Of a stretch of 64,000 bases of DNA, positions 7,554 through 57,945 are shown piece by piece. Source of the DNA: Prionailurus viverrinus (Eukaryota). Under the pieces are notes generated by a model. The model was not told the origin of the DNA. It worked only from the letters and a program-made list of their open reading frames with translations, and ran no database searches. How positions within the stretch are numbered: the first letter of the stretch is position 1; each line of letters starts with the position of its first letter. The position numbers and the translations under genes were made by a program. The stretch spans positions 680,715 to 744,714 of the forward strand of contig NC_062561.1 in the NCBI RefSeq assembly GCF_022837055.1. The letters are read 5' to 3'.

Positions 7554-7762
7554 GGGCGCCTGGGTGGCGCAGTCGGTTAAGCGTCCGACTTCAGCCAGGT
7601 CGCGATCTCGCGGTCTGTGAGTTCGAGCCCTGCGTCAGGCTCTGGGCTGATGGCTCGGAGCCTGGAGCCTGTTTCTGATTCTGTGTCTCCCTCTCTCTCT
7701 GCCCCTCCCCCGTTCATGCTCTGTTTCTCTCTGTCCCAAAAAAAAAAAAAAAAAAAAAAAAA
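7554..7762 (+). mobile_element. Young CAN-SINE subfamily copy (GGCGCAGTCGG...CAGCCAGGTC(A/G)CGATCTCGCGGTC...GGCTGATGGCTC variant) inserted in ORF1 of the full-length L1. 22-nt poly(A). Perfect 16-bp TSD tagaatataaggagag.
   Basis: The TSD is present at 7538-7553 and 7764-7779. The copy is CpG-rich and near-identical to copies at 39976, 42696, 47219, 49743 and 57695, and to the minus copy at 41067. Confidence 0.93.
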
Positions 7763-10700
7763 GTAGAATATAAGGAGAGATAAAGGTCTTCCCAAACAAA
7801 CAAAAACTGAAGGAATTCGTCACCACTAAACCAGCCCTACAAGAGATCCTAAGGGGGATCCTGTGAGACAAAGTACCAGAGACATCGCTACAAGCATGAA
7901 ACCTACAGACATCACAACAACTCTAAACCCATATCTTTCTATAATAACACTGAATGTAAATGGACTAAATGTGCCAACCAAAAGACATTTATTATCAGAA
8001 TGGATAAAAAAAACAAGACCCATCTATTTGTTGTCCACAAGAGACTCATTTTAGACCTGAGGACACCTTCAGATTGAGAGTGAGGGGATGGAGAACTATT
8101 TATCATGCCACTGGAAGTCAAAAGAAAGCTGGAGTAGCCATACTTATATCAGACAAACTAGCGTTTATATTAAAGGCTGTAACAAGAGATGAAGAAGGGC
8201 ATTATATAATAATCACAGGGTCTATCCATCAGGAAGAGCTAACAATTATAAATGTCTATGTGCCGAATACAGGAGCCCCCAAATATATACAACAATTACT
8301 CACAAACATAAGCAACCTTATGGATAAGAATGTGGTAATTGCAGGGGACTTTAACACTCCACTTACAGAAATGGATAGATCATCTAGACACACGGTCAAT
8401 AAAGAAACAAGGTCCCTGAATGATACATTGAATCAGATGGACTTGACAGATAGATTTAGAACTCTGCATCCCAAAGCAGCAGAATATACTTTCTTCTCGA
8501 GTGCACATGGAACATTCTCCAAGATAGATCACATACTGGGTCACATAACAGCCCTTCATAAGTATACAAGAATTGAAATCATACCATGCATACTTTCAGA
8601 CCACAATGCTATGAAGCTTGAAATCAACCATAGGAAAAAGTCTGGAAAACCTCCAAAAGCATGGAGGTTAAAGAACACCCTACTAAAGAATGAATGGGTC
8701 AACCAGGCAATTAGAGAAGAAATTTAAAAATATATGGAAACAAATGAAAATGAAAATACAACAATCCAAACGCTTTGGGATGCAGCAAAGGCAGTCCTGA
8801 GAGGAAAATACATTGCAATCCAGGCCTATCTCAAGAAACAAGCAAAATCCCAAGTACAAAAATTAACAGCACACCTAAAGGAAATAGAAGCAGAACAGCA
8901 AAGACAGCCTAAATCCAGCAGAAGAAGAGAAATAATAAAGATCAGAGCAGAAATAAACAATATAGAATCTAAAAAAACTGTAGAGCAGATCAACGAAACC
9001 AAGAGTTGGTTTTTTGAAACAATAAACAAAATTGATAAACCTCTAGCTAGGCTTCTCAAAAAGAAAATGGAGATGACCCAAATAGATAAAATAATGAATG
9101 AAAATGGAATTATTACACCCAATCCCTCAGAGATACAAGCAATTATCAGGGAATACTATGAAAAATTATATGCCAACAAACTGGACAACCTGGAAGAAAT
9201 GGACAAATTCCTAAACACCCACACGCTTCCAAAACTCAATCAGGAGGAAATAGAAAGCTTGAACAGACCCATAACCAGCGAAGAAATTGAATCAGTCATC
9301 AAAAATCTCCCAACAAATAAGAGTCCGGGACCAGATGGCTTCCCAGGGGAGTTCTACCAGAAGTTTAAAGCAGAGATAATACCTATCCTTCTCAAGCTAT
9401 TCCAAAAAATAGAAAGGGAGGGAAAACTTCCAGACTCATTCTATGAAGCCAGTATTACTTTGATTCCTAAACCAGACAGAGACCCAGTAAAAAAAGAGAA
9501 CTACAGGCCAATATCCCTGATGAATATGGATGCAAAAATTCTCAACAAGATACTATCAACTCGAATTCAACAGCATATAAAAAGAATTATTCACCACAAT
9601 CAAGTGGGATTCATTCCTGGGATGCAGGGCTGGTTCAACATTGGCAAATCAATGTGATACATCACATTAATAAAAGAAAAGATAAGAACCATATGATCCT
9701 GTCAATCGATGCAGAAAAGGCCTTTGACAAAATTCAGCAACCTTTCTTAATAAAAACCCTCGAGTAAGTCTGGATAGAAGGAACATACTTAAAGATTATA
9801 AAAGCCATTTATGAAAAGCCCACAGCTAACATCATCCTCAACAGGGAAAAACTGAGAGCTTTTTCCCTGAGATCAGGAACACGACAGGGATGCCCACTCT
9901 CACCGCTGTTGTTTAACATAGTGCTGGAAGTTCTAGCATCAGCAATCAGACAACAAAAGGAAATCAAAGGCATCAAAATTGGCAAAGATGAAGTTAAGCT
10001 TTCACTTTTTGCAGATGACATGATATTATACATGGAAAATCCGATAGACTCCACCAGAAGTCTGCTAGAACTGATACATGAATTTAACAAAGTTGTAGGA
10101 TACAAAATCAATGTACAGAAATCAGTTGCATTCTCATACACTAATAATGAAGCAACAGAAAGACAAATAAAGAAACTGATCCCATTCACAATTGCAGCAA
10201 GAAGCATAAAATACCTAGGGATAAATCTAACCAAAGATGTAAAAGATCTGAATGCTGAAAACTATAGAAAGCTTATGAAGGAAATTGAAGAAGATATAAA
10301 GAAATGGAAAAACATTCCGTGCTCATGGATTGGAAGAATAAATATTGTCAAAATGTCAATACTACCCAAAGCTATCTACACATTCAATGCAATCCCAATC
10401 AAAATTGCACCAACATTCTTCTTGAAACTAGAACAAGCAATCCTAAAATTCATATGGAACCACAAAAGGCCCCAAATAGCCAAAGTAATTTTGAAGAAGA
10501 CCAAAGCAGGAGGCATCACAATCCCAGACTTTAGCCTTGACTACAAAGCTTTAATCATCAAGACAGCATGGTATTGGCACAAAAACAGACACATAGACCA
10601 CTGGAATAGAAAAGAAACCCTAGAACTAGACCCACAAAAGTATGGCCAACTCATCTTTGACAAAGCAGGAAAGAACATCCAATGAAAAAAGACAGTCTCT

Positions 10701-11950
10701 TTAACAAATGGTGCTGGGAGAACTGGACAGCAACATGCAGAAGGTTGAAACTAGACCACTTTCTCACACCATTCACAAAAATAAACTCAAAATGGATAAA
10801 GGACCTGAATGTGAGACAGGAAACCATCAAAACCCTAGAGGAGAAAGGAGGAAAAGACCTCTCTGACCTCAGCCGTAGCAATCTCTTACTCGACACATCC
10901 CCAAAGGCAAGGGAATTAAAAGCAAAAATGAACTACTGGGACCTTATGAAGATAAAAAGCTTCTGCACCGCAAAGGAAACAACAAAACTAAAAGGCAACC
11001 AATGGAATGGGAAAAGATATTTGCAAATGACATATCAGACAAAGGCTAGTATCCAAAATCTATAAAGAGCTCACCAAACTCCACACCTGAAAAACAAATA
11101 ATCCAGTGAAGAAATGGGCAGAAAACATGAATAGACACTTCTCTAAAGAAGACATCTGGATGGCCAACAGGCACATAAAAAGATGCTCAATGTTGCTCCT
11201 CATCAGGGAAATACAAATCAAAACCACACTCAGATATCACCTCATGCCAGTCAGAGTGACCAAAATGAACAAATCAGGAGACTATAGATGCTGGAGAGGA
11301 TGTGGAGAAACGGGAACCCTCTTGCACTGTTGGTGGGAATGCAAATTGGTGCAGCCGCTCTGGAAAGCAGTGTGGAGGTTCCTCAGAAAATTAAAAATAG
11401 ACCTACCCTATGACCCAACAATAGCACTGCTAGGAATTTACCCAAGGGATATAGGAGTACTGATGCATAGGGGCACTTGTACCCCAATGTTTATAGCAGC
11501 ACTCTCAACAATAGCCAAATTATGGAAAGAGCCTAAGTGTCCATCAACTGATGAATGGATAAAGAAATTGTGGTTTATATACACAATGGAGTACTACATA
11601 GCAGTGAGAAAGAACGAAATATGGCCCTTTGTAGCAACGTGGATGGAACTGGAGAGTGTGATGCTAAGTGAAATAAGCCATACAGAGAAAGACAGATACC
11701 ATATGTTTTCACTCTTATGTGGATCCTGAGAAACTTAACAGAAACCCATGGAGGAGGGGAAGAAAAAAAAAAAAAAGAGGTTAGAGTGGGAGAGAGCCAA
11801 AGCATAAGAGACTCTTAAAAACTGAGAACAAACTGAGGGTTGATGGGGGGTGGGAGGGAGGGGAGGGTGGGTGATGGGTGTTGAGGAGGGCACCTTTTGG
11901 GATGAGCACTGGGTGTTGTATGGAAACCAATTTGACAATAAACTTCATAT

Positions 11951-12000
11951 ATTGAAAAAGAAAGAAAGAAAAAGAAAGAAAGAAAGAAGAGAAAGAAGGA

Positions 12001-12044
<44 letters not shown>

Positions 12045-12052
12045 AATATTCA
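11951..12052 (+). repeat. (GAAA)n microsatellite of about 100 bp at the 3' end of the full-length L1
   Basis: aagaaagaaagaaaaagaaagaaagaaagaaga...gaaagaaagaaagaaagaaagaaag read directly. Confidence 0.95.
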
Positions 12053-12657
12053 GTAGAAAAAAAACAAATCACAGTGACTGCTGCTTACCAAAAAAAAAAA
12101 AAAAAAAAAAAAAAGAATACAATGACAGACTGAAAAATTCAAGACAGAGCTTCACCAACTCCCTTAATCATGCAGAAGAAAGAATCACCTTGAAGACGGA
12201 TCATTTGAAATTAAAGGAATAAAAAGAAAAGGAATGAAAATGAGTGAAAAAAGCCTACATGAATTATGGAACACTATCAAGCAAAAGAATGTTTGCATCA
12301 TGGGCATCCCAGGAAAGGAGAGAAAGGGGTGGAAATATTATTCAAAGAAATAATAGCTAAAATCTTCCTAAATCTTGAGGGAGAGATGAATAACCAGGTT
12401 CAGGCAGCTCAGAGGACCCCAAGCAAGATCCATTGAAAGAAGATTACTCTAAAACACATTATAATTAAAATATTAAAAATCAAGGACAGGGAGAGACTTT
12501 TGAAAGCAGCAAGAGAAAAATGGCTCATCACATACAATGGAACTCCCATAGGGCTATCAGCAGATTTTTCTGCAGAAACCATGAGGTCAGGAGGGAGTGC
12601 GATGATGTATTCAAAGCGTTGAGAGGAAAAACTGCCAACCAAGAATACTGTCTTTTG

Positions 12658-13270
12658 GGTTCCTGGACCCAGTTCCAAAGGCAGGTAGGGGGCTTCCCAA
12701 CATACCACTATACTATGTACGTCCAGGTTGTTACCTGTACTTTGACCAACTAGCTATAAATCAGAGATTCCCACAATCCTTTCCTCAGTTTTTATTAGCT
12801 TGCTAGAGCAACTCACAGAACTCAGAGAGGAATTTTACTCCCTAGGCCACCAGTTGATTACAAAGGCATGTAACTCAGGCACAGCCAGATGGCAGATATG
12901 CATCAGCAAGGTCTGGGGAAAGGGTACAGACCCTCCATTCCCTCCAGGCACGCCACTCTTCCACATCTCCATGTGTTCACCAATGTGAAAGCTCTCCGAA
13001 GCCCATCTTTTGGGTTTTTATGGTGGCTTCATCACATAGGCATGATTGGCAAGAATTATTGGCCATTGGAGATTGATTCAGTCTCCAGTCTCACTGCCCT
13101 TCCAGGAGTCTATGGACAGGACTAAAGGTTCTAACTCTCTGATCATATAGTTGATTCTCCTAGCAACCAGCCCCCCTCCTTAGGTGGGGATCCAAAACTC
13201 ACCTCATTAACATAACAAAAGACACCTTTATCACTCTCATCACTTAGGAAATTCCAAGGGTTTTGGATTA
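12658..13270. repeat. Unclassified interspersed-repeat-like insert of about 600 bp inside the older L1 ORF1, possibly a solo LTR or another retroelement fragment
   Basis: It interrupts a collinear L1 ORF1 reading (ORF1 is at 12129-12657 and resumes at 13599) and has no L1, SINE or coding similarity that I can recognise. Confidence 0.3.
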
Positions 13271-13274
13271 AAAA

Positions 13275-13490
13275 TTTTTTTTTAATGTTTATTTATTTTT
13301 GAGAGACAGAGAAACAGAGCGTGAGCAGGGAGAGGCAGAGACAGAGGGAGACACAGAATCCAAAGCAGGCTCCAGGCTCTGAGCTGTCAGCACAGAGCCC
13401 AACATTGAGCTCAAACTCACAAACCATGAGATCATGACCTGAGCTGAAGTCGAAGTCAATATTTAATGGACTGAGCCACCCAGGCACCCG
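13275..13490 (-). mobile_element. CAN-SINE
   Basis: Reverse complement carries the GGTGCCTGGGTGGCTCAGTCC head, and the + strand starts with a T-run plus TAATGTTTATTTATTTTTGAGAGACAGAG. Confidence 0.85.
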
Positions 13491-13931
13491 GAAATCCCAG
13501 GGGGTTTGGGAGATGTGTGTGAGGAACAGTGGACAAAGACAAAATATATATGAGTTGACCAAATATATATGTCTTATAAATCACAATATAGCATAAACCC
13601 AGCAAAACTGTCCTTCAGAAATTAAGGAGAGATACATTCCCAAACAAAAGCTAAGGGAATTCATCACCACTGGACCTGACTTATGAAAAATGGTAAAAAG
13701 AGTTCTTGAAATGAAAGAATGCTAGAAAAATACAAGCTTCCACTTGTGGAATGAATAAATCATGGGAATAAAAGGAACAGCATAGAGAATATAGTCAATG
13801 CCATTATAATAGGTGGTAGCTATGCTTGTGATAAGCATAGCATAATGTATGAACTTGTCAAATTACTATTTGTACACTGGAAACTAATGTAACATTGTGT
13901 GTCAAGTACACATCAATAAAAAATTTAAAAA

Positions 13932-14104
13932 TGGGGTGCCTGAATGGCTCAATCAGTTAAGTGTCCGAAATCTCTTGATTTCAGCTCAAGTCATGATCTC
14001 ATGGTCATGAGATTGAGCCCTGTGTCAGGCTCTGCACTGGGCCTGAGGCCTTCATGGAATTATCTTTCTCCCTCTCCCTCTGCCCCTTCCCATGTCAAAA
14101 AAAA
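13932..14104 (+). mobile_element. CAN-SINE (older, divergent subfamily)
   Basis: GGGGTGCCTGAATGGCTCAATCAGTTAAGTGTCCGA...GATTGAGCCCTGTGTCAGGCTCTG, CpG-depleted. Confidence 0.8.
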
Positions 14105-14143
14105 TTGTCCTTTTTAAAAAGTAATTTAAAAATTGGGGTGCCT

Positions 14144-14355
14144 GGGTGGCTCAATGGGTTAAGCGTCCAACTCTTGCTTTTGGCTCAGGTCATGATCTCA
14201 TAGTTCATGGGATTGAGCCCTGTGTCGGGCTCCATGCTGCCAGCACAGAGCCTACTTAGGATTCTCTCTCTCTCTCTGCCCCTCCCCTGCTTGCTTGCTC
14301 TCCCTCTCTCAAAATAAACATTTAAAAACTAAAAATAAATAAAAATAAAATAAAT
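14144..14355 (+). mobile_element. CAN-SINE (older subfamily), in tandem with the previous copy
   Basis: GGGGTGCCTGGGTGGCTCAATGGGTTAAGCGTCCAAC...GATTGAGCCCTGTGTCGGGCTCC, (TC)n and AATAAA-rich tail. Confidence 0.85.
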
Positions 14356-15242
14356 TATATGATCCTGTCAATAGATGCAGAAGAAGGGTTTGAAAAAATT
14401 CAACACCCTTTCATGATGAAAGCTCGGAACAAACTGAGTATAGAAGGTTACCTCAACATAATAAAGACCATGTATTACAAACACAGCTAACATCAGACTC
14501 GATGAAAAACTAAGAGCTTTTTCTCTAAAATCAGAAATAAGAGTGCCTACTCTAGCCATTCCTATCCAGTGTAGTACTGGAAATCCTAGCTAGAACAATT
14601 AGGCAAGAAAAAGAAATGAAAAGCATACAAATAGGAAAGGAAAAAGTAAAATTGTCTGTGTTTGCAGATAACTTGATCTCATGTATAAAAAAACCCTAAA
14701 AATTCCACTAAAGCACTGTTAGAACAAATAAATTCAGAAAAGTTGTAGGATACTATAAGAAAAGTATAGACCATGGGACACCTGGGGGAAATACTTAGGA
14801 ATAAATTTAACCAAAGGAAGTAAAAGACACGTACATTGAAAACCTTAAGACACTGATGAAAGAAATTGAAGAAGGCACAAACAAATGGTAAGATATTTCA
14901 TGATGGAACCACAAAATACCCTGAATAGCCCAGGCAATCTTAAGGAAGAATAATAAAGCTAGAGGCATCACACTTCCTGATTTCCAACTATACTGCAAGG
15001 CTGTAGCAATCAAAACAGTGTGATGCTGTTGTAAAAACAGACACATAGACCTATGGAACATAATTAAGAGCCCAGAAATAAACCCATGCATTTTTGTCAA
15101 CTAATATTTGACAAGGGAGCTAAGAATATTCAACGGGGAAAGGATGGCCCTTTCAATAATTGGTGCTGGGAAAACTGGATATCTACATGCAAATGAATGA
15201 AATTAGGCCGCTATCTTACACCACTCAAAAATTAACTCAGAA
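14356..15242 (+). mobile_element. Degraded L1 ORF2 (reverse-transcriptase region) fragment
   Basis: Reads as diverged L1 RT: ...[166 protein letters not shown]... (compare L1 ORF2 ...[20 protein letters not shown]...[53 protein letters not shown]...). It also shows the ...[24 protein letters not shown] motif. Confidence 0.75.
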
Positions 15243-15245
15243 TTA

Positions 15246-15345
15246 GGGCACCTGGGTTGCTCAGTCAGTTGAGCATCTCTGACTCTTGATTTTGACTCAG
15301 CTCATGACCCCGGGGTCATGGTATCGAGCCCTGCCATCAGGCTAC
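15246..15345 (+). mobile_element. CAN-SINE 5' fragment (divergent)
   Basis: GGGCACCTGGGTTGCTCAGTCAGTTGAGCATCTCTGACTCTTGATTTTGACTCAGCTCATGACCCC...ATCGAGCCCTGCCATCAGGCT. Confidence 0.6.
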
Positions 15346-15551
15346 ACATTACATCTACACAGCTACACATCTGGAGCATCACATGCTACAGAGAAATCAT
15401 TCATGGAAGGGAGAGTCAATAGATGCGGAAACTTCATTGTTAATCTTATTTTAAGAAATTGCCACAGCCACTCCAGCCTTCAGCTGCCACCATCCTGGTC
15501 AGTCAGCAGCCATTGACATCGAGGCAGGACCCTTGGCAGCAAAAAAATAAC

Positions 15552-15680
15552 TTTTTTTTAAATGTTTATTTCTGAGAGAGAGAGAGAGATTGAGAGAGAA
15601 AGAGATTGTGAGTGGGACAGAGAGAGAGAGAGAAAATCCCAAGCAGGCTCCCTGCTGTCAGTGAGCCCAACACGGGGCAA
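15552..15680 (-). mobile_element. CAN-SINE 3' fragment (minus orientation), about 215 bp upstream of the vWA exon
   Basis: On the + strand: T-run, AAATGTTTATTTCTGAGAGAGAGAGAG...CCCAAGCAGGCTCCCTGCTGTCAGTGAGCCCAACACGGGG. Confidence 0.7.
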
Positions 15681-15893
15681 TTGCACATTTAATAGACTAC
15701 ACTGTAGTGTAAACATAACTTTATATGCGCTAGGAACCAAAACCTTTATTTACCTCACTTTATTGTGATACTTGCTTTATGGTGGTATTCCGGAACCGAA
15801 CCCACAATATCTCCAAGGCATGCCTATACCAATGTAAACAAGCCAGACCAGTTTAAGATAAACACCAGTCCAGCACCTTTTTTCTTTTTTTAG

Positions 15894-16089
15894 GCCTGCA
15901 TGCTTGTTTTTCAACCAGACCTCGATATCGCACTCCCTGACCTAGCTGAGAACAATGAAGTGATTATTTGTCTTGATTGCTCCGCTTCCATGGAGGGTGC
16001 GACATTCTTGCAAGCCAAGCAAATTGCCTTATATGCACTGTCCTTGGTGGGAAAGAAGCAAAAGATAAACATTGTCAAGTTTGGCACAG
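15894..16089 (+). CDS. PARP4: PARP4 coding exon, start of the vWA domain, containing the MIDAS motif DCSAS. Translates ACMLVFQPDLDIALPDLAENNEVIICLDCSASMEGATFLQAKQIALYALSLVGKKQKINIVKFGTG
   Basis: Polypyrimidine tract followed by AG|GCC, donor ACAG|gtgagt, and the reading frame continues from the previous exon. Strong match to human PARP4 (ACMLVFQPDLDVDLPDLASESEVIICLDCSSSMEGVTFLQAKQIALHALSLVGEKQKVNIIQFGTG). Confidence 0.9.
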
Positions 16090-16189
16090 GTGAGTGCTCT
16101 TTGGCCCCAGTCCAAAGCGTGCTTCCTCCTTAATATGAACATGCTCATGAGTAGAGCTGATGGCTGTTAGTACCCTGACCTCACCTATG

Positions 16190-16460
16190 GAGTAAGAGGT
16201 AGCATAGCATGGAGTTCAAGAACCAGAACACCGGAGCCAGATCCCTGGCTTCACATTCCAACTCTATCACTTACTAGCCCTGGCTGTCACCTTGGGCAAA
16301 TTACTTGAACTTTTTATACCTCAGTTTCCTCATCTGTAATATAAGGGTGATAGTTCCTACCTCACAGTGTTGTTGTAAGGATTGAGCTAATGCCTGTAAA
16401 GGATTTAAAACAGTGCCTATCACATATCAAGTGCTTTATAAATACTACTGGTATTCCTAG
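16190..16460 (+). mobile_element. MIR (mammalian-wide interspersed repeat, ancient tRNA-SINE)
   Basis: ...CTTGGGCAAATTACTTGAACTTTTTATACCTCAGTTTCCTCATCTGTAATATAAGGGTGATAGTTCCTACCTCACAGTGTTGTTGTAAGGATTGAGCTAATGCCTGTAAAGGATTTAAAACAGTGCCTATCACATATCAAGTGCTTTATAAATAC matches the MIR core consensus. Confidence 0.85.
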
Positions 16461-17091
16461 CAGCTGAACCAAATGCAAGACCCTTGGTTGAGATGTATGA
16501 GGGTCCCAAGCATATGGGCAGAACATGTGAAATCAGCACAATGTAGAAAATCTATAAGGGTTCAGCAAGCATCAGATCAGCCCTTTTAGAGGAAAAGCAA
16601 TACCATCCTCCAGGTGGGGGTCCAGGGACATGTCAGCCACCAGAAGAAGGTATTTCAAGAATGAGAGAAAGAACCAGAGTAGAGTGAGGGGGCAGTCCGG
16701 TCCTGATGATTCTTACTTTCCATCCCATTGAGCAGAAGACCTACCCTTTTATGAAGGAGCTAGGGTCTGCTGCTGCTGGGCAGAGGTCAGATAAGCCTGG
16801 GAAAACCAAGGCCCTGGAAGGAGAACGTGTCCCTGCCGTGGCCAGGCTGCCTGTGCTGTTGTGACACCCCACATCTTACTTTGCATGAGCAATCTGCTAC
16901 AGAACAGAAGTCTACATGTAATTTTATTCAGGACACTTTGCATTGTAAAGTGCATAGTTTCAGTGCACTAGAGTTTATTAGTTAAAGGAATAGTGTGGTG
17001 AATTTTTTGTATGTTAAAACTATCAAACATTGTTAATGGTCAGTAAAGTGAATATTTCGTAGCTACACCTCACGCCAATCTTATCACACAG

Positions 17092-17159
17092 GTTACAAGG
17101 AATTATTTTCATATCCTAAGTACATCACAAGCAACAATGTGCCAACAGAGTTCATTATG
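17092..17159 (+). CDS. PARP4: PARP4 coding exon (vWA). Translates (G)YKELFSYPKYITSNNVPTEFIM
   Basis: Acceptor cacag|GT completes the split Gly codon. Donor ATG|gtgagt. Matches human YKELFSYPKHITSNTMAAEFIM. Confidence 0.88.
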
Positions 17160-17737
17160 GTGAGTAAAAGGACCTTCCTTCATCTCTTGGGTCTTTTCCT
17201 ATCAAGGTTTAACAGTACTGTCCAGACTTATTTCCCCCACGAGCTCTATTGGAACACCCCCAGTCCTTCAGTTTTTGTATGTTGGTGGGCTCTTTTATTT
17301 TATTAATAAAAGCCATATGAACTCATTAAAGAAAAACTGGAAATTAAAAAGGGTAGAAAGAAAAAAATCGCCCACATTCCTACCACCTAAATGCAACAGC
17401 GTTGGAATGTTTTCTTCTGTTCCTTTTTTTCTATTTCTGAAGACAGAGCAAGCTGAGAATGACTAATTGCTTCCTCAGTCCATGCCTGCAAACCCTGGGG
17501 AAGCATAAAAAAAGTCAAATAAGTGTCCACTGATAATATTATAGTGACTGTGTGACATAAAATAAACTAAGAGGATATAAGTGTAGTTGTTGCACAAATG
17601 TATAATTGAGAAAAAAATATATCTTTTCAGTGACGATGTCTCTAAACCCTCACTGAGACGTGCTTCAGTAAATGATGACAGTTAATGGTGAATAGACCCC
17701 AAAAGTAGTAAATAACCTTTCACTTCATTTCCTCTAG

Positions 17738-17925
17738 TCTGCTACACCTACCATGGGAAATACAGACTTCTGGAAAACACTCCGGTATTTAAATTTACTG
17801 TACCCTTCTCAAGGGTTACGGAACATTCTCCTTATATCTGATGGGCACCTCCAGAATGAGAGTCTGACATTGCAGCTTGTGAAAAGAAATGTCCAACACA
17901 CCAGGCTGTTCTCCTGTGGTATTGG
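17738..17925 (+). CDS. PARP4: PARP4 coding exon (vWA). Translates SATPTMGNTDFWKTLRYLNLLYPSQGLRNILLISDGHLQNESLTLQLVKRNVQHTRLFSCGIG
   Basis: Acceptor cctctag|TCT and donor TGG|gtaagt. Matches human SATPTMGNTDFWKTLRYLSLLYPARGSRNILLVSDGHLQDESLTLQLVKRSRPHTRLFACGIG. Confidence 0.9.
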
Positions 17926-18249: not shown

Positions 18250-18375
18250 GGGGCACCTGGGTGGCTCAGTCAGTTAAGCGTCTGACTCTTGATTTTGGTT
18301 CAGGTCATGATCTCACTGTTTGTGAGTTCCAGCCCCGTGTAGGGCTCTACACTGACAGTATGGAGCCTACTTGGG

Positions 18376-18415
<40 letters not shown>

Positions 18416-47446: not shown

Positions 47447-49062
47447 TTAGTCTATTTTTATATGTAATGCTTAAGATTTTATATGTAATGCTTAAAAAAA
47501 AGAACACACTAAATTAAACAGTCCCCGTATTTTCTTTTGTCTCTGCTGATTTTCTTTGTGAAATAATGGATTGGTTTTGTTGTTTTATTTTAAAATTTTA
47601 TTTAATTCTTTTTTCCTGTATTAAGAAGATGAGGTCTGGCAAAATCAACAGCAGAGTGCACACAACAAACACTTACCTACTGAAGTGCCAGGCCTTGGGC
47701 AGTGTATGACCCGTTTTAGTATAGTAGTACTCTCAGCTGCAAGACATGCTTTTCAAACACGCAAAAGACAGAAACTTAGCCAACATGACAAGATGGAACA
47801 ATTCTCCCCAAAAGAAGAGTCAAGAAGAAATCACAGCCAAAGACTTGCTCAGAACAGATATAAACAATATATCTGAACAAGAATTTAAAACAACAGTCAT
47901 AAGACTAATACCTGGACTTGAAAAAAAACATAAAGCATAGAAGATACCAGAGAAAGCCTTGCTGCAGAGATCAAAGACCTAAGAACTAGTCAGGATGAAT
48001 TTAAAAACGCTATAGCTGAGATGCAAAATAAACTAGATACAGTGACAGCAAGGATTGAAGAAGCAGAGGAGAGAATAGGTGAAATAGAAGATAAACTTGT
48101 GGAAAATAATGAAGCTGGAAAAAAAAGGGAAAGGAAATTACTAGATCACAAGGGGAGAATTAGAGAACTGAGTCCATGAAATGAAACAATATCCATATCA
48201 TAGGAGTTCAAGAAGAAGGAGAGAGAAAAGGGGGAACAAGGTTTATTTGAACAAATTACAGCTGAGAACTGTCCTAATCTGGGGAAGGAAACAGGCATCT
48301 AAGTCCAACAGGCACAGAGAACTCCCTTCAAAATCAACAGTAACAGGTCAACACCATGACATATCATAGTGAAACTTGCAAAATACAAAGATAAAGAGAA
48401 AATTCTGAAAGCAGCTAGAGATACAAGGTCCTTAACCTACAAGATTATACATATAAGGTTAGTAGCAGACCTGTCCACTGAACCTTGGCAGGCCAGAAGG
48501 GAGTGGCAGGAAATATTCAATATGCTGAATAGGAAAAATATGCAGCCAAGAAGCCTTTATCCAGCAAGGCTGTCATTCAGAATAGGAGAGATAAAGACTT
48601 TCCCAGACAAACAAAAACTGAAGGATTTCATGACCACTAAACCAGCCCTGCAAGAAATTCTAAGGGAGACTGTCAGAGTGGAAAGCAGCAACGACTATAA
48701 AGGACCAGAAAACATCACCAGAAACACGCAATCTACAGATAACGCAATGGCACTAAATTCATATCTTTCAGTAATCACTCTGAATGTAAATGGACTAAAT
48801 GCCACAAACAAAAGACAAAGGAGTCAGAATGGATAAAAAACAAGATACATCTATATGCTGCCTACAAGAGACTCATTTTAGACCTGAGGACACCTACATT
48901 GAAAATGAGGGGATGGAGAATCATCTATCATGCTTCTGGATGGCAAAAGAAAGCTAGAGTGGCCATGCTTATATCAGACAAACTAGATTTGAAAACAGAG
49001 ATGAAGAAGAGCATTATATTATAATTAAGGGCTCTATCCATCAAGAAGAGCTAACAATTGTA

Positions 49063-49230
49063 GGGACACCTGGGTGGCTCAGTCGGTTAAGCATCCAACT
49101 TCGTTTGGCTCAGGTCATGATCTCACGGCTCGTGGTTTCGAGCCCCACGTTGGGTTCTGTGCTGACAGCTCAGAGCCTGGAGCCTGCTTCGGATTCTGTG
49201 TCCCCCTCTCTCTGCCCCTGTCCCACTCAT

Positions 49231-49277
<47 letters not shown>

Positions 49278-49308
49278 AACAAATAAACATCAAAAAAAAA
49301 TTTTTTTA
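49063..49308 (+). mobile_element. CAN-SINE inserted in L1 ORF2. 19-bp TSD agaagagctaacaattgta. (TC)n of about 45 bp.
   Basis: GGGACACCTGGGTGGCTCAGTCGGTTAAGCATCCAACTTCGTTTGGCTCAGGTCATGATCTCACGGCTCGTGGTTTCGAGCCCCACGTTGGG... The TSD is at 49044-49062 and 49309-49327. Confidence 0.92.
49238..49276 (+). repeat. (TC)n microsatellite in a SINE tail
   Basis: ctctctctctctctctctctctctctctctctctctctc. Confidence 0.9.
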
Positions 49309-49602
49309 AAGAAGAGCTAACAATTGTAAATATTTATGCCCCTGACTTGGAATAACCCAGATATATAAATCAATTAATCACAAACATAAACCCATTGATA
49401 ATAATACCATTATTGTAGGAGACTTTAATACTCCACTTACAACAATGGACAGATCATCTAGACAGAAAATCAACATGGTAACAAAGCCTCTGAATGACAT
49501 ACTGGACCAGATGGACTTAACAGATATATTCAGAACGTTTCCTCCTAAAGCAACAGAATACATATTCTTCTAAAGTGCACATGGAACATTCTCCAGAATA
49601 GA

Positions 49603-49742
49603 TCACGGTCTGTGAGTTCAAGCCCCGCATTAGGCTCTCTGCTGATAACTCAGAGCCTGGAGACTGCTTCAGATTCTGTGTCTTCCTCTCTCTCTGCCCC
49701 TCCCCAACTTGTGCTCTGTCTCTCTCTCAAAAATAAACATTA
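49603..49742 (+). mobile_element. CAN-SINE 3' half (5'-truncated) abutting L1 ORF2 sequence
   Basis: Starts mid-element at CACGGTCTGTGAGTTCAAGCCCCGCATTAGGCTCTCTGCTGATAACTCAGAGCCTGGAGACTGCTTC...CTCAAAAATAAACATTA. Confidence 0.75.
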
Positions 49743-49953
49743 GGGGCGCCTGGGTGGCGCAGTCCGTTAAGCGTCCGACTTCAGCCAGGTCACGATCTCG
49801 CGGTCCCTGAGTTCGAGCCCCGCGTCGGGCTCTGGGCTGATGGCTCAGAGCCTGGAGCCTGTTTCCGATTCTGTGTCTCCCTCTCTCTCTGCCCCTCCCC
49901 CGTTCATGCTCTGTCTCTCTCTGTCCCAAAAATAAATAAACGTTGAAAAAAAA
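49743..49953 (+). mobile_element. Young CAN-SINE subfamily copy inserted into the A-rich tail of the preceding SINE fragment. TSD aaataaacatta.
   Basis: GGGGCGCCTGGGTGGCGCAGTCCGTTAAGCGTCCGACTTCAGCCAGGTCACGATCTCGCGGTCCCTGAGTTCGAGCCCCGCGTCGGGCTCTGGGCTGATGGCTC... The TSD is at about 49731-49742 and 49953-49964. Confidence 0.92.
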
Positions 49954-52335
49954 ATAAACATTAAAAAAATTGTCCTGGGCCAGATGGCTTCCCAGGGGAT
50001 ATCTACCAGACATTTAAAGAAGAGTTAATACCTGTTCTCCTCAAACTGTTCCAAAAAATAGAAATGGAAGGGAAGCTTCCAAACTCATTCTATGAAGTCA
50101 GCATTACCTGATTCCAAAGCAGATGAAGACCCAACAAAAAAGGAGAACTACAGGCCAATATCCCTGTTAAACCTGGATGCAAAAATTGTCAACAAGATAC
50201 TAGCAAATTGAATCCAACAGTATATCAAAAGAACCTTCCACCATGATCTAGTGGAATTTATTCCTGGGCTGTAGGGCTGGTCCAATATTTACAAATCAAT
50301 CAATGTGATACACCACATTAATAAAAGAAAGGATAAGAAATACATAATCCTTTCAATAGTTGCAGAAAAAGCATTTGACAAAATACACCATCCTTTATTA
50401 ATAAAAACCCTCAAGAAAGTAGGGACAGAAGGAACATGGCTTTATATCATAAAAGGCACATATGAATGGCCCATAGCTAATATCATCCTCAGTGGGGAAA
50501 ACCTGAGGACTTTCCCCCTAGGGTCAGGAAAATGAAGCAATGTCCACTCTCATGCCTGTTGTTCAATATAGTGTTGGAAGTCCTAGCCTCAGCAATCACT
50601 CACCAAAAAGAAATAAAAGGCATACAAATTGGCAGATGACATGATACTACATGGAAAACCCTAAAGACTCACTAAAAAACTGCTAGAGCTGATACATGAA
50701 TTCAGCAACATCGTAGGATATAAAATCAATGTACAGAAATAGGTTGCATTTCTCTACATCAGTAATGAGGCAGCATAAAAAGATATCAAGGAATCAATCC
50801 CATTTACAATTGTACCAAAAAACCATAAGATACCTAGAAATAAACCTAATCAAAGAGGTAAATGATCTGTATGCTGAAAACTGTAGAAAGCTTATGAAAA
50901 AAATCAAAGAATATTGCACTTCAAGCTGCATTACAAAGCTGTAATCATCAAGACATTATGGTACTGGCATAAAAACAGACACTCAGATCAGTGAAACAGA
51001 ATAGAAAACCCAGAAATGGACCCACAAACATAGGGCCAACTAATCTTTGATAAAGCAGGAAAAAATATCCAATGGAATAAAGACAGTCTCTTCAGCAAGT
51101 GATGCTGGGAAAACTGAACAGCGACATGCAGAAGAATGAAACTGGAACATTTTCTTACACCATACACAAAAATAAACTCAAAATGGATGAAAGACCTAAA
51201 TGTAAGACAGGAAGCCATCAAAATCCTTGAGGAGAAAGCAGGTAAAAACCTCTTTGGCCTGCGCTGCAGCAACTTCTTACTCAACACGTCTCCAGAGGCA
51301 AGGGAAACAAAAGCAAAAATGAGCTATTGGGACCTCATTAAAATAAAAAGCTTCTGCACAGCGAAGGAAACAATCAGCAAAACTATAAGGCAACTGGCGG
51401 AATGGGAGAAGATATTTGCAATCGACATATCAGATAAAGGGTTAGTATCCAAAATCTATAAAGAACCTATCAAACTCAAAACACCCCCAAAACAAATAAT
51501 CCAGTGAAGAAATGGGCAAAAGAGGTGAATAGACACTTCTCCAAAGAAGACATCCAGATGGCAAACCAACACATGAAAAAATGCTCAACATCACTCATCA
51601 TCAGGGAAATATAAATCGAAACCACAATGAGATACCACCTCACCCCTCTCAGAATGGCTAACATTAACAACTCTGGCAACAACAGATGTTGGCGAGGATG
51701 CGGAGAAAGAGGATCTCTTTTGCACTGCTGGTGGGAATGCAAACTGGTGCAGCCACTCTGGAAAACAGGATGGAGGTTCCTCAAAAAATTAAAAATAGAA
51801 CTACCCTATGACCCAGCATTTGCACTACCAGGTATTTATACAAGGGATACAGGTATGCTGTTTAGAAGGAACACATGCACCCCAGTGTTTATAGCAGCAC
51901 TATCAGCAATAGCCAAAGTATGAAAAGAACCCAAATGTCCATTGATGGATGAATGGCTAAAGAAGATGTGGTATATATACAATGGAGTATTACTTGGGAA
52001 TCAAAAAGAATGAAATCTTGCCATTTGCAACTAGGTGGATGGAACTAGAGGGCATTATGCTAAGCAAAATTAGTCAGTCAGAGAAAGACAAATATCATAT
52101 GACTTCACTCATATGAGGACTTTAAGAGACAAAACAGATGAACATAAGGAAAGGGAAGCAAAACTAATATAAAAACAACGAGGGAGACAAAACATAAGAG
52201 ACTCTTAAGTATAGAGAACAGAGGGTTACTGGAAGGATTGTGGGAGTGGGGATGGGCTAAGTGGGCAAGGGGCATTAAGGAATCTACTTCTGAAATCATT
52301 GTTGCACTATATGATAACTAACTTGAATGTAAATC

Positions 52336-53495
52336 AAAAAAATAAATTAAGAAAAAAATTGAAGACAAAAAGAAATGGAAAAGCATTCCATTCTCATGGA
52401 TTGGAAGAACAAATATTGTTAAAATGTCAATACTACCCAAAGCAATCTACACATTCAGTGCAATCCCAATCAAAATTGCACAGGCATTCTCCTCAAAGCT
52501 AGAACAAACAATCCTAAAATTTTTATGGAACCACAAAAGACCCTGAATACCCCAAGTTATGTTGAAAAAGAAAACCAAAGTGGGAAGCATAACAATTCTG
52601 GGCTTTAAGCTATATTATAAAGCTGTAATTATCAAGATAGTATTGTACTGGCACAAAAACAGATACATAGAATACTGGAATAGAATAGAGAACCCAGAAA
52701 TGGACCAACAAATATATGGCCAACTAATCTTTGACAAAGCAGGAAAGAGTACCCAATGGAAAAGAGACAGTCTCTCCAGCAAATGGTGCTGGGAAAATGG
52801 GACAGTGACATGTAGAGGAATGAAACTGGAATGCTTTCTTACACCATACACAGATATAAACTCAAAATGGATGAAAGACTTAAGTGTGAGACAGGAAACC
52901 ATCAAAATCATACAGGAGAAAACAGGCAGCACATCTTTGACCTTGGGTACAGCAATTTTCTACTTGATATGTCTCTGGAAGCAAGGGAAATAAAAGCAAA
53001 GATGAACTATTGGGACCTCATCAAAATAAAAACCTAATGCACAGCGAAGGAAACAATCAACAAAACTAACAACAAAACGGGAGAAGGCAACCAACAGCGA
53101 ACGGGAGAAGATATTTGCAAATGATATATTGGATAAAGGGTTAGTGTCCAAAATTATAAAGAACTTAACCAAACTCAGCACCCAGAAAACAAATAATCCA
53201 GTGAAGAAATGGGAAGAAGACATGAAGAGACACTTTTTCAAAGAAGACATCCAGATGGCTAACAGACACATGAAAAGATGTTCAACATCACTCATCATCG
53301 GGGAAATACAAATCAAAACCACAATGAGATACCACCTCACACCTGTCAGAATGCCTAAAATTTAACAACCCAAGAAACAATAGATGTTGGTAAGGATGCA
53401 GAGAAAGGGGAACCCTTTTGCACTGTTGTTGGGAATGCAAACTGGTGCAGCCCCTCTGGAAAACAGTATGGAGGTTCCTCTAAAAATTCAAAATA
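52336..53495 (+). mobile_element. L1 ORF2 fragment (RT C-terminal half through the [11 protein letters not shown] region), 3'-truncated where the tandem SINE pair begins
   Basis: Track ORFs 52559..52993 and 53129..53365 (...[33 protein letters not shown]...). Confidence 0.8.
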
Positions 53496-53675
53496 GGGGA
53501 GCCTGAGTGGCTCAATCAGTTAAACGTCTGACTTCAGCTCAGGTCACGATCTCAGGGTTCGATCCCCATGTCTGGCTCTGTGCTGACAGCTCTGAGCCTG
53601 GAGCCTGCTTCGGATTCTGTGTCTCCCTCTCTCTGCCCCTCCCCTGCTCACTCTTCTTCTCTCTCAAAAATAAAC
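53496..53675 (+). mobile_element. CAN-SINE (first of a tandem pair), truncating L1 ORF2
   Basis: GGGGAGCCTGAGTGGCTCAATCAGTTAAACGTCTGACTTCAGCTCAGGTCACGATCTCAGGGTTCGATCCCCATGTCTGGCTC... Confidence 0.85.
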
Positions 53676-53676
53676 A

Positions 53677-53905
53677 GGGACTGGGTGGCTCAGTTGGTTA
53701 AGCAGCTGACTTTGGCTCAGGTCATGATCTCATGGTTCATGAGTTTGAGCCCCGCATCAGGCTTTGTGCTGACAGCTCAGAACCTGGAGCCTGCTTCGGA
53801 TTCTGTGTCTCCCTCGCTCTCTCTGCCCCTCCCCCACTCACACTCACTCCGTGTCTCAAAACTGAATAAACATTTAAAAAATTCAAAAATAAACATTAAA
53901 ATTTT
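53677..53905 (+). mobile_element. CAN-SINE (second of the tandem pair)
   Basis: GGGACTGGGTGGCTCAGTTGGTTAAGCAGCTGACTTTGGCTCAGGTCATGATCTCATGGTTCATGAGTTTGAGCCCCGCATCAGGC...AAACTGAATAAACATTTAAAAAA. Confidence 0.85.
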
Positions 53906-53937
53906 TTGTAAATGTGTAGACAGAAGAAAAGACAACA

Positions 53938-54032
53938 TATGCATAGGTAAGGTATATACAAAGTATACATATATATATATACACGTATATATATATACAT
54001 ACACACAACATATGCATATGTAAGGTATATAC
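53938..54032 (+). repeat. (TA)n/(CA)n-rich simple repeat
   Basis: aaggtatatacaaagtatacatatatatatatacacgtatatatatatacatacacacaacatatgcatatgtaaggtatatacaa. Confidence 0.85.
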
Positions 54033-54982
54033 AAAAGAAGAAAAGTGCATTTAATTGATTAAGCAAGGACTTGGAAGGAAGAACACACGATATGTAGAAA
54101 CTAACTTTGCAAAACAACCACCACAACCAAAGGAGCGTACATCATGAGAATGTAAATTGAAAGATCCAAATAGTGTTTACGTCTGAAAATCTGGGGAGCT
54201 GAGGAACAGGGAGTTGGAGGACATATATAAGATGGCTTCAATTTTATAATATGTTATTTCTTCTAAAGAAAAGAGAGGAATTTGAAGCAGATGTGGGAAA
54301 ATGATAAAAGTTGACAAGCTACACAGTTCTCTTTTCTGTATGCTTAAAAGATTTCATAATAAAAAAACATTAAGTGGCTATGTTGTAGTGATGCTAACAG
54401 GGCTACGTATCAAAATCTAAGATGGAAACACAGATAATTTACCTGGGAAACTCGCACACAACTCACTGTGAACTCTAATGATGATGAAGATTGCAGGGGA
54501 GGAAAATAACTCTTCTTACCCCCTTCTAGGTTCTTGGCTGAGACACCCTATGATAAAAAATTAACAAGAGAAAAACCAACCATTTTAATTATGTACACAC
54601 ACATATATACCTGTACAAAAGGGAGTCCCACAAAGATGGGAGACTCGCAGGCATCCAGGCACTGAGCTGAGGAAATGGAGAGGGGTCTGGGCAAGTGGGG
54701 GAGGGGCAGGGATGATTCACAGGAAGGTGCTTGATAAACAAATGTTGACTTACCATGTAGGTTAGTCTCTTATGTGAAAAACTAGTCTCTGGTAATAGCT
54801 CTCTTCCTGATATAAGCCTCCTTTCTAATTTCTTTAGGCCGTTAGGTGGGAGGTAAAAAGCTTTTTGTGAGTTCGCTGGATCTTGATTGCCTTCAGCTCA
54901 AGATTATCCACATCCAAAAGTAGCATGTTCTGGGGTGGCTTGTTCTGAACCCACTCAAGATAGATGTTAAAAGTTTAGTTTC

Positions 54983-55229
54983 GGGGCACCTGGGTGGCTC
55001 AGTCAGTTGAGCATCCGACTTCGGCTCAGGTCATGATCTCAGTTTGTGAGTTCAAGCCCCACGTCAGACTCTCACAGTCCGTGAGTTCAAGCCCCACGTC
55101 AGGCTCTGTGCTGACAGCTCAGAGCCTGGAGCCTGCTTCGGATTCTGTGTCTCCCTCTCTCTCTGCCCCTCCACCACTCATGCTCTGTCTCTCTCTGTGT
55201 CAAAAATAAATAAAGATTAAAAAAAAAAG
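54983..55229 (+). mobile_element. CAN-SINE with an internal tandem duplication of about 33 bp covering the B-box region. TSD aaagtttagtttc.
   Basis: ...GTTTGTGAGTTCAAGCCCCACGTCAGACTCTCACAGTCCGTGAGTTCAAGCCCCACGTCAGGCTCTGTGCTGAC... The TSD is at 54970-54982 and 55227-55239. Confidence 0.9.
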
Positions 55230-56220
55230 TTTAGTTTCATGAAATGTGAGATTGAAAAAATAACAATACTTGAAGTCTAATTTTTGTATCAAGTGATTTC
55301 AAATACATGATTTGCATTTAGAAAATTAAAATGGGTTCTTATTTTCTGGCTCACTATATAAAAACATTCATTTTCAATTGTATTTTATAGTAAAATTTCT
55401 TGGTTTGGGTAAATAACACTCGTTACCTCTAGTAGTGTTAAAATAATCAGAATAATTTGGATGATCCAAAAAATGTTTATTTTACATTTCCTGAAGCTGG
55501 TACTCTCTACCCTCAAGAGTCCAGAGAACTACAAAGTAAGGGGACTGGGCTGCAAGCTTTTATAGAAAGAGGCAAGTGGGAAGAAGGAAGGAAGAAGTAC
55601 TCGGCTTATATTGATTGACTAGGGTTGCCTTTCTGGCCTTATTCAGAAACGTCAAGGAACAGGGTAGTGAGTATCGCATCCAGGTTGGCTTGGTGTTGGG
55701 GGATTGGCTGACTGGATATACCTTTTTTGTTTCTGATCAAGGCGAGTTTTTACAGGGACACAAAAGCTTTGGTTCACTGTCATGACACCCCGGGCAGTAG
55801 TGGCTCCATCTTAGGCCTAGAAATTTATTTCAGTGGTACTAATCACTAGAAATAATTTGATATACCGACTTAGCCAGCCATATCAATTGTTCATCTGTTG
55901 TATATTTAGTTTACTCCTCTGAGGTATTTGTAGCAGGAGCCTAAGAACTGAATTTCTTTCACCAACTTCATGCGTCTCTGGTTATTAAAGATGGCAAAGG
56001 ATCGGAGCTGTGGCTCTAACTGCTTCCTAACAATGGTCAGGGTGCTATGGTGCTTGTTTCATTCATCCTCTTTTGTTATTTACATAGCAGGCTAATTTAT
56101 GATCTGCTAATGTACCATGGTTTATGGTTTGCTAATGTATTATTTCATAGCGCTTTCATAAATGGGCACGGTTTGAGATGCAGAATTTACAACAGATACA
56201 AAAGAGTTTTCCACTTTCAG

Positions 56221-56353
56221 GTATAAAAGGAAGCGAGCGTCTCCTGGACCTGATCGCCACATTTCTGGTACTGCAGTTTCTTCGTACCAAGTTGGAACAA
56301 AAGGGAATAGTCTTCAAATCACTGATGAAGTTGGATGATGCTTCCATTTCCAG
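56221..56353 (+). CDS. PARP4: PARP4 coding exon. Translates (G)IKGSERLLDLIATFLVLQFLRTKLEQKGIVFKSLMKLDDASIS(R)
   Basis: Acceptor ccactttcag|GT and donor CCAG|gtgact. Matches human VKGRECLLDLIATMLVLQFIRTRLEKEGIVFKSLMKMDDPSISR. The preceding intron is about 21.3 kb. Confidence 0.88.
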
Positions 56354-56795
56354 GTGACTTTAATTATTGCACTAAGTAACTCATTTATATTTCTAACCAT
56401 TTCTTGACTAAATTTTACAAGAAGCTACATGGAATTGTAAGAACAAAGAGAATTTATTCACAGGGAGTATCTTGCCTGCACTATTCTGTCATTGGCAGGG
56501 CAGACACAGTGTTTTTGCCTCTTGGGTTCCAGGAAAAACCAGGGCTCAGGGAGTTAAGTGTAGCTTATACTGGAGCTCAGATCTATGGCTCCTGGTTTAG
56601 TGTTCTTTTCACTATGGTATATTGATTAAATGTGCTTTTGGAAAATCTGCAATACGATTGTTAGGACCAGTCCTGTTCCCAACAGTTTCGGGCCTGGCAC
56701 AAGAATATAGGTGGAAACCCACATACTATCTGTCTAAGTATTTAAAAATTATAAATGAAACTAGCAAACTGTCAAATAAAATATGTTTGTTGTTT

Positions 56796-57018
56796 TTTTT
56801 TTAATTTTTTTTTAACGTTTATTTATTTTTTGAGACAGAGAGAGACAGAGCACGAACAGGGGAGGGGCAGAGAGAGAGGGAGACACAGAATCTGAAACAG
56901 GCTCCAGGCTCTGAGCTGTCAGCACAGAGCCCGACGTGGGGCTTGAACTCACGGACCGTGAGATCATGGCCTGGGCTGAAGTCGGACGCATAACTGACCA
57001 AGCCACCCAGGCGCCCCT
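56796..57018 (-). mobile_element. CAN-SINE (SINEC_Fc-like). TSD taaaatatgttt.
   Basis: On the + strand: T-run, AACGTTTATTTATTTTTTGAGACAGAGAGAGACAGAGCACGAACAGGGGAGGGGCAGAG...GAGCCCGACGTGGGGCTTGAACTCACGGACCGTGAGATCATGGCC...AAGCCACCCAGGCGCCCC. Flanking repeats at about 56776-56789 and 57019-57030. Confidence 0.9.
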
Positions 57019-57694
57019 AAAATATGTTTTAAAGTCCTGCCTTGGCAAATACAACTTCATGAAGACTGGGTTTAAATTTAGAATTCTGTGACCACTTGGA
57101 AGTTTTATGCCATAATGTGACAGAGTGGAGAGAGACAGTTCTGGGACCCTGGCTTCTAGCCCTTGGGCTGACCTCAGGCCCCACAAGAGGCCTTGAGCCT
57201 CCGTGTGAATACTTTCCTTACTTCCCAAAACTTCGTCCATACCCCATGCAAATGGTCACCCCGTATGTGTGTGTATATACACAGAATATACATACATGCA
57301 CATAACACACATACATACATATGTAATTTGCTTATGCCTTTTTAAAAAGGCAAGATAAGTGGGAAAACTAGCAAAATTTATAAAAATACTATCTATAAGG
57401 AAAGGGGGAGGAGACAAGCTACGTTCTTCCTACTATATCTTGTTTTACCTTTTTGACTTTGAAACTATGTAGATATTTTGCATCATAAAGTCCATGTACC
57501 AGGGAAGAGGTATTAAACATGTTAAATTATACCATGGACTGCAATCAGCAGCATCTGGAGTGTGAGGAAATAAATGGCAAAAGACAAAAGGCAAGGGGTG
57601 GAAGCTATAAGTTACAGGACACATGCCCCAAAGGCAATGTGAGACCTTGTTTGGATCCTGATTTGAACAAAACCCGTATTATTTTAAAAAGAGA

Positions 57695-57945
57695 GGGGCG
57701 CCTGGGTGGCGCAGTCGGTTAAGCGTCCGACTTCAGCCAGGTCACGATCTCGCGCTCTGTGAGTTCGAGCCCGGCGTCAGGCTCTGGGCTGATGGCTCAG
57801 AGCCTGGAGCCTGTTTCCGATTCTGTGTCTCCCTCTGTCTCTGCCCCTCCCCCGTTCATGCTCTGTCTCTCTCTATCCCAAAAATAAATAAACGTTGAAA
57901 AAAAAAAATTTTTTTTAAATAAAAAAAATTTAAAAAAATTTAAAA
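57695..57945 (+). mobile_element. Young CAN-SINE subfamily copy with a long, complex A/T tail. TSD aaaaagagag.
   Basis: GGGGCGCCTGGGTGGCGCAGTCGGTTAAGCGTCCGACTTCAGCCAGGTCACGATCTCGCGCTCTGTGAGTTCGAGCCCGGCGTCAGGCTCTGGGCTGATGGCTC... The TSD is at about 57685-57694 and 57946-57956. Confidence 0.9.

Follow-up and report, generated by a model that had tools for sequence, protein, structure and literature searches.

CAN-SINE insertions assigned to felid subtype IIB, and an older relative, in the introns of PARP4

The PARP4 locus and its SINE copies

The stretch of DNA analyzed here, called the window, comprises 64 kb of contig NC_062561.1 of Prionailurus viverrinus (positions 680,715 to 744,714). It carries the 3' half of a PARP4 ortholog, the introns of which harbor seven short interspersed elements (SINEs) of the carnivore tRNA-derived CAN-SINE type that had been described, from the sequence alone, as copies of a single young subfamily. 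We found that six of these, all on the plus strand, indeed form a tight young group, whereas the seventh, on the minus strand, is an older relative. The copies are named by their start as 7554, 39976, 41068, 42696, 47219, 49743 and 57695; with refined boundaries copy 42696 spans 42694..42925 and copy 57695 spans 57696..57947. Divergence from the consensus and CpG counts were measured on a 189-nt body, with 14 consensus CpGs per young copy. The SINEs with their target-site duplications (TSDs), followed by the gene and the main LINE-1 (L1) element, are:

7554..7763, plus strand: CAN-SINE assigned to subtype IIB; 3.2% from consensus, 11/14 CpGs intact; TSD TAGAATATAAGGAGAG at 7538-7553 and 7764-7779, 16 bp, exact
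39976..40184, plus strand: CAN-SINE assigned to subtype IIB, lowest divergence of the six; 1.1% (2/189 positions) from consensus, 14/14 CpGs; TSD AAAATGGACTTATTCC at 39960-39975 and 40185-40200, 16 bp, exact
41068..41284, minus strand: earlier CAN-SINE subtype other than IIB, either IIA-like or intermediate; divergence from the IIB consensus 5.9%, 9/14 CpGs; TSD ATAAGAGACT at 41058-41067 and 41285-41294, 10 bp, exact
42694..42925, plus strand: CAN-SINE assigned to subtype IIB; 2.6% from consensus, 12/14 CpGs; TSD AAAAAGTATAAGATAC at 42678-42693 and 42926-42941, 16 bp, exact, the 5' unit being separated from the SINE head by two extra bases (AC)
47219..47441, plus strand: CAN-SINE assigned to subtype IIB; 3.2% from consensus, 12/14 CpGs; TSD AAAAATTAGTCTATTTTT at 47201-47218 and 47442-47459, 18 bp, exact
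49743..49949, plus strand: CAN-SINE assigned to subtype IIB; 1.6% (3 positions) from consensus, 12/14 CpGs; TSD AAAAATAAACATTA at 49729-49742 and 49950-49963, 14 bp, exact
57696..57947, plus strand: CAN-SINE assigned to subtype IIB; 2.6% from consensus, 12/14 CpGs; TSD AAAAAGAGAG at 57686-57695 and 57948-57957, 10 bp, exact, of low complexity
3755..60256, plus strand: 3' half of the PARP4 ortholog, about 14 exons, from exon 3755-3907 to the last coding exon 60059-60256
5560..~12000 (end approximate), plus strand: apparently full-length L1 with Pfam ORF1, endonuclease and RVT_1 matches

Six copies form a young group and the seventh lies outside it

A profile built from the young consensus and run across the window with nhmmer gave 38 CAN-SINE matches. 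The six young plus-strand copies scored 177-187 bits, followed by three matches at 151-158 bits (41089-41284 on the minus strand, 22247-22448 and 56814-57017), while all remaining matches reached at most 123 bits. The four diagnostic motifs that the original prediction ascribed to all seven copies are each far commoner than in shuffled sequence, and they occur together in the six plus-strand copies only; copy 41068 lacks two of them, sharing just CCCCCGTTCATGC and GGCTGATGGCTC.

The six young copies differ from their own consensus by 1.1-3.2% (2-6 substitutions each) and from each other by 3.0-7.1% (6-14 substitutions), with a pairwise mean of 4.6%, as compared to 21% among 19 older near-full-length copies. 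The pairwise divergence and CpG check that accompanied the original prediction sets the six clearly apart from the older SINEs of the window. Its wording "nearly identical" is generous for the actual distances; in copy 42696, moreover, 8 bp are tandemly duplicated (TCACGATC TCACGATC at 42744-42759). Retention of almost all CpGs, also predicted for the complete set, was confirmed for the six (73/84, 11-14 of 14 per copy) and not for copy 41068. Three variable positions are each common to two young copies, which indicates more than one source gene.

Copy 41068 has the ancestral T state GGCTCAGTCGG in the A box instead of GGCGCAGTCGG. It reads TTTGGCTCAGG...TCTCACGG where the six copies read CAGCCAGG...TCTCGCGG, with an extra T in TTTGGCTCAGG, and a 25-mer motif search found no match in this copy even when up to three mismatches were allowed. 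Copy 41068 is an earlier or transitional subtype outside the young group, and may represent a late IIA or transitional lineage.

Two other SINEs, at 22247-22448 (plus) and 56814-57017 (minus), are of intermediate age, diverging by about 9% from the IIB consensus and retaining 6-7 of 15 CpGs. Old-type states (GACAGCTC, A-box T) occur in them together with young ones (CCCCCATTCATGC-like), as in a stepwise subfamily succession. At 54983-55216, two abutting SINE matches cover model positions 1-91 and 54-200; either one older SINE has duplicated about 38 nt of its own sequence, or two truncated copies have become fused.

Anatomy, tails and target sites

At the seven sites a SINE body of about 190 nt was found, composed of a tRNA-like head (GGGGCGCCTGGGTGGCGCAGTCGGTTAAGCG...GAGTTCGAGCCCC), a CT-rich part and an A/T-rich tail (AAAAATAAATAAACGTTG-A(n)); in the alignment, the CT-rich segment preceding the tail is CTCCCTCTCTCTCTGCCCCTCCCCC...CTCTGTCTCTCTCTGTCCC. 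The A box of the six young copies is TGGCGCAGTCGG, with an A>G change to GGCGCGGTCGG in copy 47219, and the B box GAGTTCGAGCCC is exact in all seven. ARAGORN reported tRNA-like folds at 7558-7642 and 39981-40065, i.e., in two young copies, and in the heads of three older copies. The Rfam tRNA model gave no match at the gathering score, as expected for a degenerate tRNA-like head.

The tails are not the pure poly(A) runs of 10-22 nt that were originally proposed. Only copy 7554 ends in a long pure run (A25), without the AATAAATAAACGTTG segment. The five other young copies have composite A/T tails that open with AAAAATAAATAAA(C/A)GTTG-A(n) and possess terminal pure-A runs of 4-13 nt; in three of these five, A(n) is followed by a T interruption (TT or T8) and then further A. 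The tail of copy 57695 is about 60 nt of A/T and includes T8. Five of the six young copies carry two or three AATAAA motifs on the strand that is sense to PARP4, and copy 7554 has none.

Perfect TSDs of 10-18 bp were correctly predicted: they are exact in all seven copies, with lengths of 16, 16, 10, 16, 18, 14 and 10 bp in order of position. Because the TSDs all differ and the flanks are unrelated, the copies represent seven independent insertions and not duplications. In five of the six young copies the TSD starts with A4-5 after T or C, the signature of an L1-endonuclease nick site. An intact TSD, which the original prediction had counted as part of a signature of recent insertion, is however no sign of youth, since six copies at 16-21% divergence also keep perfect TSDs of 14-20 bp.

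Correspondence to published felid subfamilies

The feliform CanSINEs were classified by Walters-Conte et al. (2014; PMC4084570). In that work, subfamily I is old and pan-feliform, and subfamily II is marked by an A>T change in the B box and a GGCTCGG motif. Subtypes IIA and IIB differ by a one-base T indel at alignment position 51, and only IIB has the T>G change in the A box. Subtype IIB groups with Repbase SINEC_Fc1 and IIA with SINEC_Fc2. The IIB subfamily, which was called active, has a mean distance of 0.068 +/- 0.052, and each of its 49 loci was restricted to one felid clade or species, with a date of less than about 5 million years (My). Insertions into existing CanSINE loci were found to give tandem arrays (PMC4084570).

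These marks were compared with the copies in the window. The A-box G occurs in all six plus-strand copies, either in GGCGCAGTCGG itself or in a variant with one mismatch elsewhere, and is absent from every other SINE of the window. In the indel region, the six read TTCAGC-CAGG and copy 41068 reads TTTGGCTCAGG. The published text leaves the pairing of indel state and subtype unstated; we assigned the T-less state to IIB because it is linked to the A-box G. The B-box T (TTCGAGCCC, within GAGTTCGAGCCC) occurs in all seven copies. These motifs support the assignment of the six copies, which are members of the youngest SINE subfamily in the window, to subtype IIB (SINEC_Fc1). The diagnostic bases (A-box T>G, T indel, GATGGCTC and TTCGAGCCC) match a subtype that is exclusive to Felidae, in agreement with the proposed felid-specific origin. 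Such an origin appears reasonable because the published IIB loci are all confined to felid clades or species.

Searches were also made outside the window. A 36-mer of the subfamily had zero matches in metagenome or viral contigs, and a 24-mer had two, in a metagenome contig (L001, AACY023260721.1; approximately positions 1-140, minus strand) and in a contig of a bacterial assembly (L002, NZ_SDVB01000344.1; 379 bp). Both sequences agree with the IIB consensus derived from the window and are probably cat-family DNA that contaminates public records. The L002 contig belongs to a Ciceribacter ferrooxidans assembly, in which it has low coverage (0.54x). The GGCTCGG motif is exact in copies 7554 and 42696 and in L002, and reads GGCTCAG in the other four IIB copies and in 41068.

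Published work has already described the subfamily with its diagnostic bases, its occurrence in Felidae only and its tendency to insert beside older SINEs, and the seven loci would show up as annotated repeats whenever RepeatMasker is run on a felid genome. As far as could be judged, none of the seven was included in the 93-locus set of PMC4084570.

Age and polymorphism

The copies were dated crudely, with an assumed rate of 2.2e-9 substitutions per site and year; with 2-6 substitutions per copy, the confidence limits are wide. Differences of the non-CpG type gave a pooled age of about 9 My (95% range 5-14), which is an upper bound. A hand count of private non-CpG changes (13 in 966 sites) gave about 6 My, and CpG loss gave about 1.5-4 My. 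The six copies are therefore roughly 2-9 My old, i.e., young within the window yet millions of years old.

The original prediction went further and considered the insertions very recent and good candidates for insertion polymorphism. If they were younger than about 1 My, several could still be polymorphic in domestic cat populations. Copy 39976, with two of 189 positions off the consensus and 14/14 CpGs, and copy 49743, with only three positions off, fit such a scenario best. The lineage has also been recently active: SINEC_Fc is the young family of the cat, with 2,312 copies less than 1% diverged (Jurka et al., 2011; PMC3183009), and IIB itself was termed active (PMC4084570). On the other hand, none of the six copies is less than 1% from the consensus, and the expected number of such copies per 64 kb is 0.09. 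Substitutions number 5-6 in four of the six, some of them private and outside CpGs, and the 8-bp duplication is present in one. In five of the six, the terminal A runs are interrupted and only 4-13 nt long. Together with the pooled dating of about 2-9 My, this makes insertion within the last million years unlikely. In view of the substitutions, the short interrupted tails and the dating, polymorphism in populations is not the expected state, except perhaps for copies 39976 and 49743. The copies are probably fixed passengers in the host species, and plausibly absent from some other felid lineages and outside Felidae.

Gene and L1 context

PARP4 exons were placed by tblastn with a PARP4 probe, and the placement was confirmed by database hits and an alignment with Pongo. 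The peptide encoded in the window aligns over its whole length, including the C-terminal residues, with a Pongo isoform at 85% identity; database matches of the peptide carry the name PARP4. Copy 7554 lies in intron 3908-15893, five copies lie in the 21-kb intron 34878-56219, and copy 57695 lies in the last intron. Accordingly, all seven SINEs, and not five as first counted, are located in PARP4 introns, six of them in sense orientation. The large exon at 31654-32601 (plus) is poorly conserved, with about 27% identity to the human sequence. An exact look-up of the open reading frame of this exon found no record, and a homolog search in a 5.8-billion-protein database gave one match at 39% identity. 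The PARP4 homologs found by database search were all shorter than 1000 aa, and were either from non-carnivores or database entries without a name whose contigs measured only about 1-3 kb.

L1 sequences were mapped by Pfam domain matches and blastn segments. The L1 that starts at 5560 has its ORF1 dsRBD at 7320-7544, the endonuclease at 8008-8724 and the reverse transcriptase at 8728-10682. It has a CpG-rich 5' region and long open reading frame pieces, and appears relatively young. Copy 7554 interrupts ORF1 of this element, where the dsRBD match ends at 7544. The SINE cluster of the 21-kb intron is inserted in or bordered by more plus-strand L1 pieces, located at 35.8-53.5 kb: copy 42696 has plus-strand L1 ORF2 on both sides, and copies 39976 and 49743 have L1 ORF2 sequence immediately 3' (from 40183 for copy 39976). 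Older SINEs are neighbors as well. Copy 49743 is inserted in the A-rich tail of an older plus-strand SINE (49600-49738), and copy 57695 lies directly upstream of another (57963-58165).

The strand composition of the introns reflects this arrangement. Of 20 L1 blastn segments, 19 are on the plus strand. After masking of SINEs, AT skew was +0.28 in intron 3908-15893 and +0.22 in intron 34878-56219, and about 0 elsewhere; the ratio of TTAAAA to TTTTAA hexamers was 9 to 2 and 43 to 19, the latter in the 21-kb intron. CAN-SINEs in the window are oriented 27 plus to 11 minus (P=0.014). In dog introns, sense CAN-SINEs, which are of the T+ class with an AATAAA tail, are under-represented (PMC11699766). 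The sense bias of SINEs and L1s in PARP4 runs opposite to this antisense bias.

Origin and clustering of the insertions

SINEs are transcribed by RNA polymerase III (Pol III), their RNA is taken up by the L1 protein ORF2p, and nicking of the target leads to insertion with a TSD, a sequence of events that is established SINE and L1 biology. For the copies in the window, a few source copies would have been transcribed by Pol III via the internal A and B boxes, after which L1 ORF2p may have taken up the A-rich 3' end of the SINE RNA. A nick at a T-rich/AAAA (TT/AAAA) target would prime reverse transcription, and a second-strand cut 10-18 bp away would give the TSD and leave the A/T-rich tail.

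The six young copies exceed, modestly, what is expected for a stretch of this length: 59,515 transposable element copies less than 5% diverged in 1.64 Gb of cat genome (PMC3183009, Table 2) correspond to 2.3 per 64 kb (P=0.03). We infer from the anatomy of the locus that target availability explains this best. Six of the seven copies lie in two introns that are filled with sense L1s and the tails of older sense SINEs. These make the plus strand A-rich and provide 2-4 times more L1-endonuclease hexamers in the orientation that yields plus-strand inserts. The local excess and the uniform sense orientation would then arise because the A-rich sense L1 substrate offers extra target sites. Since about 71% of target hexamers favor the plus orientation, six plus-strand inserts out of six are unremarkable (0.71^6 = ~0.13).

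Taken together, we consider it highly probable that the youngest felid CAN-SINE lineage (IIB) retrotransposed into PARP4 introns six times independently about 2-9 My ago, in addition to an older IIA-like insertion, and that the clustering was due to A-rich sense L1 substrate. Some observations weigh against this interpretation. Only two of the six copies have an exact GGCTCGG, and the IIB assignment was made with motifs quoted in the text of the published paper. The nick site of copy 7554, TT/TAGA, is non-canonical, the TSD of copy 57695 is short and of low complexity, and the dating uses 2-6 substitutions per copy with an assumed rate. We give little weight to a set of other possibilities, even when they are considered jointly: that one or both of copies 39976 and 49743 are lineage-specific or still segregating, that the block of sense SINEs with AATAAA motifs in the 21-kb intron causes cryptic polyadenylation or exonisation and alters felid PARP4 transcripts, or that the sense bias goes beyond target availability.

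Five copies within 10 kb of one intron (41068 on the minus strand, the others on the plus strand) might instead suggest copying at the DNA level, by segmental or tandem duplication or by gene conversion among neighboring SINEs, and SINEC_Fc clusters have been discussed as substrates of non-allelic recombination in the cat (PMC6952417). Such local copying is essentially refuted by the TSDs, each of them exact and each different, and the flanks of the copies are unrelated as well. The tail structures also differ between copies, unrelated outside contigs hold the same consensus, and the older SINEs interspersed in the same introns were not homogenised (12-25% diverged, 0-5 of 15 CpGs left). We therefore regard it as extremely improbable. 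Just as negligible is the idea that these are ordinary old SINEs with a youthful look from regional protection against CpG decay, e.g., by germline hypomethylation: although the CpG retention of 73/84 is the most striking feature of the six, their non-CpG divergence is also low (about 1.2-2.5% vs 11-22% in old copies), which refutes this reading, hardly any CpGs are left in the old SINEs of these introns, so that there is no regional protection, and the derived diagnostic bases common to the six are missing from the old copies.

The insertions are ordinary for a cat-family genome and routine intronic examples of a known element. In practice they can serve as presence/absence markers in felid phylogenetics and perhaps in studies of cat populations, for which the TSD coordinates define seven assays. 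With respect to methods, intact TSDs should not be taken as a mark of youth, and clusters of young SINEs and their orientation can stem from A-rich L1 substrate.

Comparison with known systems

The closest match to the six copies is feliform CanSINE subtype IIB, with the same A-box G GGCGCAGTCGG, T indel, GATGGCTC(G/A)G motif and TTCGAGCCC B box. The mean distance is 0.046 here (0.030-0.071) as compared to the published 0.068 +/- 0.052. The insertion habit is matched as well, with insertion beside or into older SINE tails and AT-rich, TTAAAA-like targets. There is no substantive difference; four of the six copies have GGCTCAG in place of the published GGCTCGG, which would be a CpG to CpA change or variation among source genes. 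Copy 41068 resembles IIA in having the subfamily II features GATGGCTC and TTCGAGCCC, the ancestral A-box T, the extra T and a higher divergence. It differs in already carrying CCCCCGTTCATGC and GGCTGATGGCTC, which it shares with IIB, and it is set beside IIA by the described motifs.

More distantly, SINEC_Cf of the dog belongs to the same superfamily and is likewise a tRNA-derived T+ SINE with an AATAAA tail that is mobilised by L1 and forms the youngest lineage-specific subfamily of its host. It is a separate subfamily, however, with thousands of polymorphic loci and antisense-biased intronic copies (PMC11699766), whereas the copies in the window are mostly sense. The human AluY elements (Ya5, Yb8) show the same succession of master genes with few diagnostic bases, CpG-rich young copies, and target-primed reverse transcription with TSDs at TT/AAAA sites. 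They originate from 7SL RNA instead of tRNA, and polymorphic Alus are typically less than 1% diverged, below the divergence of the copies described here.

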